From a bacterium (GTDB lineage Bacteria > Cyanobacteriota > Vampirovibrionia > Gastranaerophilales > JAILCC01): a stretch of 64,000 nt of DNA. How positions within the stretch are numbered: the stretch's first letter is position 1; every line of letters starts with the position of its first letter. Both the position numbers and the translations under genes were made by a program. The notes under the pieces were generated by a model. That model had not been told where the DNA came from and did not search any database. It saw only the letters and a program-made list of their open reading frames with translations. Where the stretch lies: assembly GCA_024680555.1 (NCBI GenBank), contig JAILCC010000018.1, positions 49,174 through 113,173 on the forward strand, written 5' to 3'. This document shows positions 30,471 through 30,849 of the stretch, in pieces.

Positions 30471-30849
30471 GCGGATTTTGCGTAGGCTGACCATAGGGAA
30501 TGCCGAAGTGACGATTGAGAAGTCTGCGACAAGCGCAGCGCAGCAGACGCAGCAATCGTGGAGCAAAATCCAAGACAGCGGATTTCGGCAAGTGCGCCGT
30601 GCGAGCGTAGCGAGCCCAGCACGTCCTCGTGAATAATTCTATGGAATGGAAGAAAATTGTAAGATTTTCTGAAATGGAATGAAGAATTATGAACTGCCGA
30701 TAATTCAAGAAGCGGATTTTGCGTAGGCTGACCATAGGGAATGCCGAAGTGACGATTGAGAAGTCTGCGACAAGCGCAGCGCAGCAGACGCAGCAATCGT
30801 GGAGCAAAATCCAAGACAGCGGGTTTTGCGTAGGCTGACCGTAGGAATG
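30471..30849 (+). repeat. Interspersed repeat family, locus B: X (107 nt) - Y (134 nt) - X (107 nt) - truncated X
   Basis: X1 at 30471-30577 and X2 at 30712-30818 are essentially identical. Y at 30578-30711 matches loci A and C. Every unit starts GCGGATTT and ends AATCCAAGACA or AATTCAAGAA. Confidence 0.92.

Follow-up and report, generated by a model that had tools for sequence, protein, structure and literature searches.

Introduction

Several described bacterial elements come close to the repeats reported here. IS91 starts at an exact position, stops at a 3' hairpin that can be missed, and forms tandem copies, while PATEs and the cyanobacterial Nezha carry separate left- and right-end hairpins and use a fixed 4-5-nt target. 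Mycobacterial MIRU are direct repeats of 50-100 bp between genes, for which we know of no conserved three-way fold or order-wide termini, and class C group II introns possess a GUGYG 5' end and a domain V. To our knowledge, neither the RPE of Rickettsia nor the pneumococcal BOX forms fixed-linker chains with exact 5' ends. In REP repeats, stems are kept by compensatory change, and the associated RAYTs have been found only in proteobacteria (PMC2817692).

The Gastranaerophilales, relatives of cyanobacteria that are widespread in the gut, are uncultured, and their non-coding DNA is almost unknown. The window analyzed here, a whole stretch of 64,000 nt from one member of this order, contains at 30.5 kb a block that an initial annotation described as a mosaic of two repeat units, X and Y, in the order X-Y-X-X'. 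With a little better than even confidence, we read this block as a head-to-tail chain of non-autonomous, strand-specific structured repeats that are copied via a single-stranded intermediate by a trans-acting enzyme.

Results

The 30.5-kb array and related copies in the window

The proposed layout of X1, Y, X2, and a truncated X proved correct in all its coordinates (Table 1). The array begins at the first base past the T-tract of the 180-aa gene's terminator, a placement that the initial annotation had recognized and that a terminator scan bears out; the relatives L121 and L181 carry the same terminator hairpin and T-tract with no array behind it. An exact look-up of the 180-aa protein returned no record. 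At the other end, X' matches the 5' end of X at ~90% and stops 9 nt short of the stop codon (30859-30861) of a convergent 269-aa gene. The claimed GC-richer interior is also present, at ~0.55 inside the array versus ~0.35 in the flanks, and the window has 4 occurrences of the 19-nt junction AATCCAAGACAGCGGATTT, where 0.02 would be expected by chance.

Two details of the unit ends needed revision. The AAGACA tail ascribed to both unit types is right for X, while Y in this array ends in GATAATTC-AAGAA rather than GATAATCC-AAGACA. The 8-bp hairpin ascribed to every junction is perfect only at 29.7 kb and weaker elsewhere: the X1-Y hairpin has 6 bp, a mismatch, and then 1 bp, the X2-X' hairpin includes a G.U pair, and the Y-X2 hairpin is weaker still.

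Table 1. Positions of repeat units and the adjoining terminator in the window
Locus	Feature	Position	Strand	Remarks
13.2 kb	Y-type unit	13277..13411	-	RelA/SpoT gene stop codon TAG ends with the unit's first G
13.2 kb	Y', 5' ~81 nt of a second Y unit	13196..13276	-	98% identical to the first; cut within the inner hairpin
29.7 kb	Remnant: unit 3' end (AGCAAAAUCC-AAGACA) plus 14-nt 5' stub (GCGGAUUUUGCGGU)	29671..29700	+	Perfect 8-bp junction hairpin
30.5 kb	Terminator hairpin and T-tract of the 180-aa gene	30443..30470	+	Terminator scan
30.5 kb	Unit X1	30471..30577	+	P1 GGAUUUUGC/GCAAAAUCC; two inner hairpins; tail AAGACA
30.5 kb	Unit Y	30578..30711	+	P1 GGAUUUCGGC/GCCGAUAAUUC with one bulged U; arms P2 and P3; tail AAGAA
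30.5 kb	Unit X2	30712..30818	+	Identical to X1 at 107/107
30.5 kb	X', 31-nt 5' stub of an X unit	30819..30849	+	2 substitutions and 1 deletion relative to X
46.2 kb	Y-type unit	46207..46341	+	Directly past a terminator T-tract (..GGCTTTTTATT)
46.2 kb	Y', 5' 110 nt of a second, identical Y unit	46342..46451	+	Cut in the P3 3' strand

Related copies were found at the three other window loci that had been named. At 13.2 kb, Y' is followed by TAAAAAC and then by a terminator; the 29.7-kb remnant sits between the groEL stop codon and the groEL terminator; and Y and Y' at 46.2 kb (46207-46451) make up 1.8 copies at 100% identity. Where a gene had been claimed upstream of this last array, there is only a 47-aa ORF and a terminator. 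The arrays at 30.5 and 46.2 kb lie after a terminator and those at 13.2 and 29.7 kb before one. By Pfam, the array neighbors are GroEL, RelA/SpoT, IF-3, and genes without a Pfam family.

Unit architecture and covariation

About 100 complete units share one architecture, a three-way junction of 85-220 nt in which a closing helix, P1, holds two inner arms. P1 is almost invariant (5' GC-GGAUUUUG ... CAA(U)AAUCC-AAGA(N1-2) 3'), and its extension pairs with the unit's own 3' end better than with any of 1000 permuted partners. The inner arms vary freely in sequence while keeping their helices, tandem G.A pairs (GUGA-stem-GAAC), and GNRA or GCGAAGC loops. The inner stems first described in X and Y are present, and the Y loops TGTAAG, CTCCTG, and TGAAAG do stand over an invariant stem. 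Between successive units, the junction hairpin is CAAAAUCC-AAGACAGC-GGAUUUUG, or as an oligonucleotide CAAAATCCAAGACAGCGGATTTTG.

Selection on structure, which the initial annotation had suggested from those loops, is confirmed by covariation spanning at least 8 species. Of the 26 pairs in the Y-family alignment, 11 have undergone compensatory changes, and 97.9% of the alignment cells are paired; the observed score was reached by none of 500 shuffles, and slid controls collapse. RNA fold z values are -3.1 for X and -1.1 for Y. The strands are strongly asymmetric, with sense-strand counts of 1045 GA versus 274 TC and 158 GTGA versus 2 TCAC, and the sense fold is the stabler one in 77 of 83 units.

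A sense-specific fold with covariation this strong is also what would be expected if the units were primarily functional RNA modules under selection, acting in 3'-UTR stabilizing or processing, as small RNAs cut at AAGA/GC (a slash marks a cut or boundary here and below), or in titration of an RNA-binding protein, with their spread incidental. Substitutions in the P1 3' half point the same way, being of G.U type over A.C type by 7 to 0, a count of few events. Against this, G.U pairs are rare, at 3 of 284 alignment cells and 4% of MFE pairs. From sequence data alone, folding at the RNA level and folding as single-stranded DNA cannot be told apart.

X had further been described as bounded by 9-bp terminal inverted repeats, and Y by related ones. 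The repeat found, GGATTTTG/CAAAATCC, is 8-10 bp long and subterminal, and the outer ends differ (GC versus AAGACA). An inverted repeat in each unit would suit classical TIR MITEs moved by an IS630/Tc1-type DDE transposase that is encoded elsewhere and makes a TA target-site duplication; that it stops short of the ends argues against them, as does the extreme purine asymmetry between strands.

Distribution and mobility

Further copies exist well beyond the window. The junction pattern matches more than 117 genome stretches, mostly from Gastranaerophilales/Melainabacteria MAGs of many species, and one copy is located in a phage tail module. Identity is 98-100% between tandem copies and 85-89% between copies from different loci. 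X and Y appear to be two subfamilies of a Gastranaerophilales-wide, apparently undescribed superfamily of mobile repeats; searches of the literature on the sequences and on Gastranaerophilales or Melainabacteria repeats returned nothing relevant.

All four window loci lack the element in close relatives (89-98% protein identity), which bears out the earlier description of dispersed, repeated, mobile-like non-coding units. Empty sites, which are over-sampled because assemblies break at repeats, were found in L121 and L181 for the 30.5-kb locus, in L170 for 13.2 kb, in L177-L179 for 46.2 kb, and, for 29.7 kb, in L181, where GroEL is 98% identical. The units are mobile, and the 30.5-kb block is a recent insertion. 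Fresh inserts carry more than one almost identical unit, and each of the three recent arrays closes with a 3'-truncated unit, a further point against TIR MITEs.

For the functional RNA reading, these comparisons cut both ways. Orthologous arrays differ in unit content among species, and the units that they share are 96-97% identical versus 78-89% for the flanks. We take these differences and identities as signs of persistence and exchange, and the high identity of shared units also counts in favor of selection on the RNA. On the other hand, the absence of the elements from relatives means that none of the four is needed by its neighbor gene, and one unit lies in frame within a PyrK-like ORF.

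Insertion sites and orientation

Arrays are placed at gene ends, directly past a terminator T-tract or at a stop codon. Among the 42 array starts on which the targeting figures rest, a hairpin with T-tract adjoins the start in 13, and TA/GCGG is found in 11, including 6 in which a TAG stop codon is completed. A or T precedes the array at -1 in 41 of the 42, and no other target base is conserved. The 5' end is exact (/GCGG) in all arrays, and at T-tract sites the array begins 7-10 T past the hairpin. By comparison, the 3' end takes several forms: some arrays finish in a clean AAGACA tail, some in a short stub completing the junction hairpin, and others in a unit cut off at another point. Hairpin-completing stubs of 10-20 nt account for 22 of 57 stubs. 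Within arrays, units run strictly head-to-tail on one strand with fixed linkers and no inverted pairs.

Four inserts at TAA stop codons (the window's 13.2-kb locus, L109, L101, and L103) have TA on either side. Together with the A or T at -1, this counts in favor of a TIR MITE. At T-tract sites, comparison with the empty sites in L121, L181, and L177 revealed no duplication; the check for target-site duplications therefore yielded no regular one, with TA...TA confined to stop-codon sites. The strict head-to-tail order with fixed linkers also speaks against TIR MITEs, and the loci hold no parent IS with these ends, nor the window a transposase. We regard this explanation as very improbable.

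In the window, each element runs in the same direction as the gene upstream, as the initial annotation claimed; in the wider family this is a bias only, with 51 of 74 arrays (69%, p = 0.0015) co-oriented and 23 (31%) antisense. Convergent settings outnumber divergent ones by 18 to 6. Transcription as a 3' extension, also claimed, is not assured, since about a third of arrays start past a terminator. The best reading is that units are often co-transcribed with the upstream gene.

Downstream, co-oriented placement and the two window loci lying between stop codon and terminator would again fit functional RNA modules; array starts past a terminator (13/42) and antisense arrays (23/74) would not. 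Weighing these points, and the lack of any Rfam match, we consider it unlikely that RNA function is primary.

The same sites could suggest RNA-mediated insertion, in which a unit RNA or its copy is joined to the 3' ends of terminated or ribosome-stalled transcripts, reverse-transcribed, and recombined into the genome. Array starts coincide with exact points of intrinsic termination, 7-10 T past the hairpin, or with stop codons; orientation is biased toward the upstream gene; and an exact 5' end with a ragged 3' end is what aborted copying predicts. Yet there is no reverse transcriptase in the window and none recurring near arrays, the model offers no means of rejoining the downstream flank, the array runs antisense to the gene upstream in 31% of cases, and the T-tracts of empty sites end at the same base anyway. 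This route seems to us scarcely likely at all.

Searches for an enzyme and for known families

Pfam scans assigned the 48 window ORFs to housekeeping families or to no family, with no transposase or reverse transcriptase among them, in agreement with the claim that the window has no cognate transposase. Over ~1.1 Mb of loci from many genomes, array flanks included, tblastn with E. coli RayT gave no real match (one in L058 proved to be a thymidylate-kinase-like ORF), and an IS200 TnpA probe found nothing. The suggested search for a RAYT or IS200-like transposase whose ends fit thus came back negative for those ~1.1 Mb. Clustering of all ORFs in the loci revealed no gene recurring beside arrays; the clusters near them are pilin-like paralogues, response regulators, spurious array ORFs, and homologues of window genes without a Pfam family. 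No ORF-carrying autonomous element with the same ends was found in the loci.

The view that the units match no known family also stands, as no Rfam family or paper matches them. In the window, Rfam reports only 4 tRNAs at gathering score, with sub-threshold noise for the 30.5-kb region in E-value mode, and 17 array-bearing loci gave 0 matches. Weak matches to C/D-box snoRNAs were rejected as noise. A tRNA-like unit was likewise rejected, as ARAGORN finds just the 4 true tRNAs, and so was a ribozyme, with no family matched. A CRISPR array does not fit because the 'spacers' are themselves repeated and structured, and neither this nor a type III antitoxin RNA array suits neighbors such as GroEL, RelA/SpoT, IF-3, and genes without a Pfam family.

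A REP/BIME origin would make the hairpin that follows GTAG past P1 the REP, multiplied by a domesticated RAYT. Indeed, GTAG (CGTAG, TGTAG, GGTAG) and a hairpin stand just past P1 in 27 of 95 unit types, the units are extragenic and clustered at gene 3' ends, and compensatory change also keeps REP palindrome stems (PMC2817692). However, GTAG is not conserved, being replaced by CAAG, CTAG, or GCGG in other families, and the units are 85-220-nt three-way junctions instead of 20-40-nt palindromes, with no inverted pairs or alternating orientation. The lack of a RAYT-like ORF in ~1.1 Mb including array flanks, and the restriction of RAYTs to proteobacteria reported by the authors of PMC2817692, also weigh against it, and we find this origin very improbable. 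The BIME/REP- or MITE-like behavior originally proposed is therefore apt for dispersed, mobile, non-coding repeats, whereas membership in either the REP/BIME or the TIR-MITE class fails on defining features.

Discussion

Returning to copying of the units in trans through a single-stranded intermediate, we infer a mechanism of the following kind. An enzyme conserved in the order would recognize the conserved P1/junction hairpin on one strand and copy the units as single-stranded concatemers, by a rolling-circle or one-ended process of HUH type, with the loop of the junction hairpin as the unit boundary. The concatemers may then enter exposed single-stranded DNA beside hairpins. Where no terminator intervenes, units would be co-transcribed with the upstream gene and fold in its 3' UTR, and stabilizing or delimiting of the mRNA by the folded units is a possible secondary effect.

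Several observations sit less easily with this scheme. The heteromeric X-Y-X-X' order is not what rolling one circle would be expected to give. The four stop-codon inserts have TA on both sides, as if TA had been duplicated, and HUH elements produce no such duplication. A single-strand mechanism on the lagging strand should orient elements along GC skew, and orientation showed no relation to local skew (55/106, a weak test on 8-kb loci).

A more specific version, which we offer as distinctly speculative and improbable as a whole, is that an order-wide single-copy enzyme nicks the junction hairpin loop (AAGACA/GC), rolls single-stranded concatemers off, and delivers them to the exact ends of expression units, either the final T of a terminator or a position within the stop codon. 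Stalled transcription or termination complexes might guide such an enzyme, or it might work through an RNA/cDNA intermediate; P1 would then be the structure by which a new family of HUH enzymes, reverse transcriptases, or recombinases takes hold of the units.

These repeats are of interest in several respects. They offer a tractable case of structural selection, with one terminal helix invariant across the order, an interior free in sequence under strong structural constraint, many copies, and clean covariation. No described bacterial repeat family combines, as these do, an exact 5' end with chained identical units that sit at a terminator's last T or at the stop codon, which points to an unidentified enzyme. 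They also break metagenome assemblies, can add protein residues or a new C-terminus and stop codon, and could be used as strain markers.

Our findings can be set against the known systems in turn. Like the REP/BIME-RAYT system of Enterobacteria, Pseudomonas, and Stenotrophomonas (PMC2817692), the units are high-copy, extragenic, structured repeats at gene 3' ends, with mosaic clusters of unit types, compensated stems, no self-encoded enzyme, and in some families GTAG before a hairpin. They differ in that the conserved part is a long-range terminal helix with a linker rather than a GT(A/G)G head, the host is non-proteobacterial, and the arrangement is always head-to-tail. The IS200/IS605-derived miniatures, PATEs and Nezha, likewise have strand-specific hairpins in place of TIRs and are non-autonomous, being mobilized in trans by a small HUH enzyme, as these units may be; here, by contrast, the unit ends pair with each other and only A/T at -1 is conserved. 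MIRU resemble the units as intergenic tandem direct repeats in one orientation whose ends overlap the upstream stop codon, yet have no sequence relation to them. RPE are structured repeats that can occur in frame in protein genes, as is the unit in the PyrK-like ORF, and BOX elements are modular subunit mosaics transcribed with their neighbors; both differ in sequence, lineage, and architecture. Class C group II introns insert right past intrinsic terminator hairpins and are oriented like the gene upstream, whereas our units are far too small, lack GUGYG and domain V, and have neither a reverse transcriptase nor an Rfam intron match.

Rolling-circle and one-ended HUH elements (IS91, and Helitrons such as Helraiser, PMC4778049) share one exact terminus where the element starts, a 3' hairpin that serves as a missable stop signal and leads to variable 3' ends, head-to-tail tandem copies, and the lack of end-reaching inverted repeats or regular target duplication. 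The /GCGG start, the hairpin-closing stubs (22/57), and the identical tandem copies reproduce this feature set as a resemblance only. No Rep/helicase or Y2 transposase was found in the window or recurring near arrays, and, in further contrast, the elements described here are ~100-nt non-coding units that use no fixed target oligonucleotide and settle by terminator hairpins and stop codons.

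Repeat arrays in the window

The X-Y-X-X' array at 30.5 kb is laid out as the initial annotation described it, and the further copies it placed at 13.2, 29.7 and 46.2 kb were recovered by sequence. The window has 4 copies of the 19-nt junction AATCCAAGACAGCGGATTT, far more than the 0.02 that chance predicts, and GC content is ~0.55 within the 30.5-kb array versus ~0.35 in its surroundings, in agreement with the GC-rich units reported earlier. Some details require amendment. The general layout of the unit ends stands, but the Y unit of the 30.5-kb array ends GATAATTC-AAGAA; and the 8-bp hairpin ascribed to every junction is perfect at 29.7 kb but not at the other junctions. 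Tandem copies in the recent window arrays are 98-100% identical and Y copies from different loci 85-89%, and all three recent arrays contain more than one unit, the last of them truncated.

Repeat units and arrays in the window
Feature	Position	Remarks
X1	30471-30577	
Y	30578-30711	
X2	30712-30818	107/107 identity to X1
X'	30819-30849	31-nt X-like stub; convergent 269-aa gene's stop codon follows after 9 nt
Y + truncated Y'	13411-13196	minus strand
Junction-only remnant	29671-29700	
Y + Y'	46207-46451	Tandem Repeats Finder: 1.8 copies, 100% matches

A separate tandem repeat, 3.1 copies of a 91-nt unit at 56007-56290, lies immediately upstream of tRNA-Val (56278-56353). Every copy opens with the first 13 nt of the tRNA (GGGCGATTAGCGC) and also carries the tRNA's D-arm sequence in reverse complement (AACCAACTGCGC); its fold is unexceptional (z = -0.96).

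Unit anatomy and selection on structure

About 100 complete units from array-bearing loci share a single plan. The 5' end consists of GC, then GGAUUUUG, then 1-4 variable bases, and leads into a pair of inner hairpins, the arms P2 and P3; the 3' part carries the complement (N)CAA(U)AAUCC, which closes the unit (helix P1), and a tail of AAGA plus 1-2 bases, most commonly AAGACA. Interiors are almost wholly different across families and species, the shared pieces being loops of GNRA or GCGAAGC type and helices broken by tandem G.A pairs (GUGA[stem]GAAC). Different combinations of P2 and P3 modules occur, as in one genome stretch (L001) whose units have P2 in common and differ in P3. The fold is specific to one strand: 77 of 83 units fold better on the sense than on the antisense strand, and the sense strand is 61% purine and has GA 1045 times versus TC 274, GTGA 158 versus TCAC 2, and GCGAAGC 22 versus 0 for its complement.

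The earlier proposal that unit structure is under selection held up in the covariation analysis it had called for. Among 11 Y-type units drawn from 8 or more species, aligned into P1, P2 and P3, standard pairs fill 97.9% of cells and both-sided changes affect 11 of 26 pairs (33 cells), a covariation score reached by 0 of 500 shuffles; with partners slid by 1-3 columns, pairing falls to 23-48%. In the outer P3 stem, CG, UA, AU and GC substitute for one another at the same positions, and the variable extension of P1 forms 1.53 extra pairs with its own 3' end, versus a mean of 0.74 and a maximum of 1.04 with 1000 permuted partners. Unit structure is thus under selection. Because G.U pairs are scarce (3 of 284 cells in the Y alignment), the fold could work in RNA or in single-stranded DNA.

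Empty sites and insertion boundaries

For each of the four window loci, a close relative offers an empty site. The window sequence at 13.2 kb, ...AAG TA[Y + Y']TAA AAACAAAT..., compared with that of L170, shows ~216 nt sitting at the TAA stop and flanked on either side by TA. The units are mobile, and recently so in the window's genome. Contigs bearing the nearest relatives of infC and groEL often measure just 0.8-4 kb, probably because these arrays interrupt metagenome assembly; empty sites are therefore over-represented among assembled relatives.

Empty counterparts of the window loci in related genome stretches
Locus	Relative	Conserved context	Empty site
30.5 kb	L121	269-aa gene, 89% protein identity; synteny kept	same terminator GCTCGGTTTTTTTT, convergent stop codon directly after
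30.5 kb	L181	GroEL 98% identical; gene order kept	same terminator, then unrelated spacer
13.2 kb	L170	RelA 95% identical	...AAA TAA AATTATTTGAC... then terminator
46.2 kb	L177-L179	IF-3 89% identical; same 47-aa ORF	..GGCTTTTTTATT continues directly into infC leader
29.7 kb	L181	GroEL 98% identical	41-nt remnant after groEL absent

The groEL terminator hairpin is wholly different in sequence between the window (29741-29775) and L181 (5672-5700) despite the similarity of GroEL itself, and thus the entire groEL 3' region is turning over fast. The ~70 nt (GTGAGGGATGTCGCCTTGGCGAGCAGAGC...) at 46452-46521, which separate the truncated Y' from the infC leader, are missing from the L177 empty site. 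At the identical post-terminator site upstream of infC, L185 carries a different ~150-nt element with 13-bp ends CATGTACAATTGC/GCAATTGTACATG.

Array starts are sharply placed. Among 42 scored, 13 have their first base directly after a hairpin and T-tract, 11 are TA|GCGG (with 6 of them finishing the TAG stop codon of the gene upstream) and 4 come after TAA or TGA; in 41 of the 42, A or T precedes the start. Array ends vary: 57 of 92 close with the 5' part of one more unit, a stub of whatever length, and short stubs are over-abundant, 22 of the 57 being 10-20 nt and just closing the junction hairpin CAAAAUCC-AAGACAGC-GGAUUUUG. In the other 35, nothing after AAGA(N1-2) can be recognised as the start of a further unit, though some are stubs with a mutated motif. 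Given near-identical tandem copies, truncated ends and more than one unit per array, truncation and multimery look like products of insertion itself, not of later decay.

Genomic setting and host range

Arrays persist at orthologous sites across species with differing unit content (L001/L085, L012/L057/L021, L026/L069, L039/L059/L044, L079/L088). Units in common there are 96-97% identical versus 78-89% for the flanks, a difference that points to constraint, homogenisation or exchange. The 84-nt unit of L026/L069 is bordered by a 13-19-nt direct repeat of GCGGATTTTGYGG. In L026 it lies in frame, without a stop codon, inside a PyrK-like ORF (~5044-5141, +; RRPFSV-ADF...-GIITVIFKVKGDG); L069 has the same site on the minus strand, with an additional in-frame hairpin-repeat insertion.

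By crude ORF calling, 51 of 74 arrays run in the direction of their upstream gene (p = 0.0015), so that the co-orientation noted in the window survives as a bias and not as an invariable rule. Settings were convergent (18), co-directional sense (16), co-directional antisense (8) and divergent (6); units thus favour gene 3' ends and frequently, though not in every case, lie on the transcribed strand. Orientation showed no link to local GC skew (55/106). Terminator-like hairpins lie 3' of the arrays at 13.2 and 29.7 kb and 5' of those at 30.5 and 46.2 kb; the suggested transcription as a 3' extension is therefore likely where no terminator intervenes, but is not assured at the latter two. Homologues of the 180-aa and 182-aa genes (window 29869-32232), which have no significant Pfam family, adjoin arrays in several other species (L006, L109, L012/L057, L026/L069), and in L109 the array begins within the stop codon of one.

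The best named relatives of the window's GroEL, IF-3 and RelA/SpoT are Candidatus Gastranaerophilales MAGs. A census with the pattern AATCCAAGAN{1,2}GCGGATTTYG on one genome per species gave at least 117 matching stretches; among the matches listed, most are Gastranaerophilales/Melainabacteria MAGs of many species and a minority are isolated chance matches in GC-rich members of other phyla. One genuine copy, a unit plus stub, lies in the contractile-tail phage module of IMG/VR contig UViG_3300045988_146177 (L169 ~8450-8570), between the genes for the tail tube and the tail assembly chaperone. The tail tube ORF terminates within it (GCG GAT TTT GCG TAG), so the element provides the last residues and stop codon. 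The same units occur in 'uncultured Muribaculaceae' records of GC ~31-43% (L003, L017, L031, L032, L047 (CAZCIW01), L034, L071, L016, L066 and others), of which at least L047 also carries a prepilin-type ORF family known from Gastranaerophilales loci; the label is probably wrong. Other structured GA-rich repeat families populate the same genomes (GTCATCCTGAGGG..CCCGAAGGATC, GTAGGTTGGGCA..TGCCCAAC, CTCGCAATGACG; L185 560-720 and many more loci, e.g. L036, L037, L053, L064, L093).

Relation to known elements

The units match no Rfam family and, searched by sequence, no paper, in accordance with the initial annotation; a literature search on Gastranaerophilales or Melainabacteria repeats likewise returned nothing. 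Its BIME/REP-like reading fails on unit size, GT(A/G)G head and alternating orientation (PMC2817692), and its TIR-bounded MITE reading on the subterminal position of the inverted repeat, unlike outer ends and the lack of regular duplication; the suggested target-site duplication is not general, none being seen at T-tract loci when filled and empty sites were compared. As first noted, the window contains no cognate transposase: its 48 ORFs match housekeeping Pfam families or none, with no transposase, integrase or reverse transcriptase. The proposed IS200/IS605-like RAYT did not emerge either, RayT and IS200 TnpA probes giving nothing real in ~1.1 Mb, and we found neither a recurrent gene beside arrays nor a long element with the same ends.

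The repeat is real and, as far as searched, undescribed. The units are bacterial interspersed structured repeats with an unusual insertion signature, forming a mobile, non-autonomous, strand-specific superfamily of Gastranaerophilales with invariant termini, gene-end entry at an exact 5' boundary and chain formation. A conserved trans-acting enzyme may recognise the P1/junction hairpin on one strand, make single-stranded concatemers and insert them beside hairpins; any benefit of the units to mRNA would be secondary. With no enzyme found, the units cannot be assigned to the rolling-circle/one-ended HUH class, and the TA...TA sites, the X-Y-X order and the missing skew signal are an imperfect fit to it. 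The resemblance lies in an exact start, a leaky 3' hairpin stop, tandem products and the absence of duplication; in Helraiser, a bypassable 3' hairpin serves as the terminator (PMC4778049).
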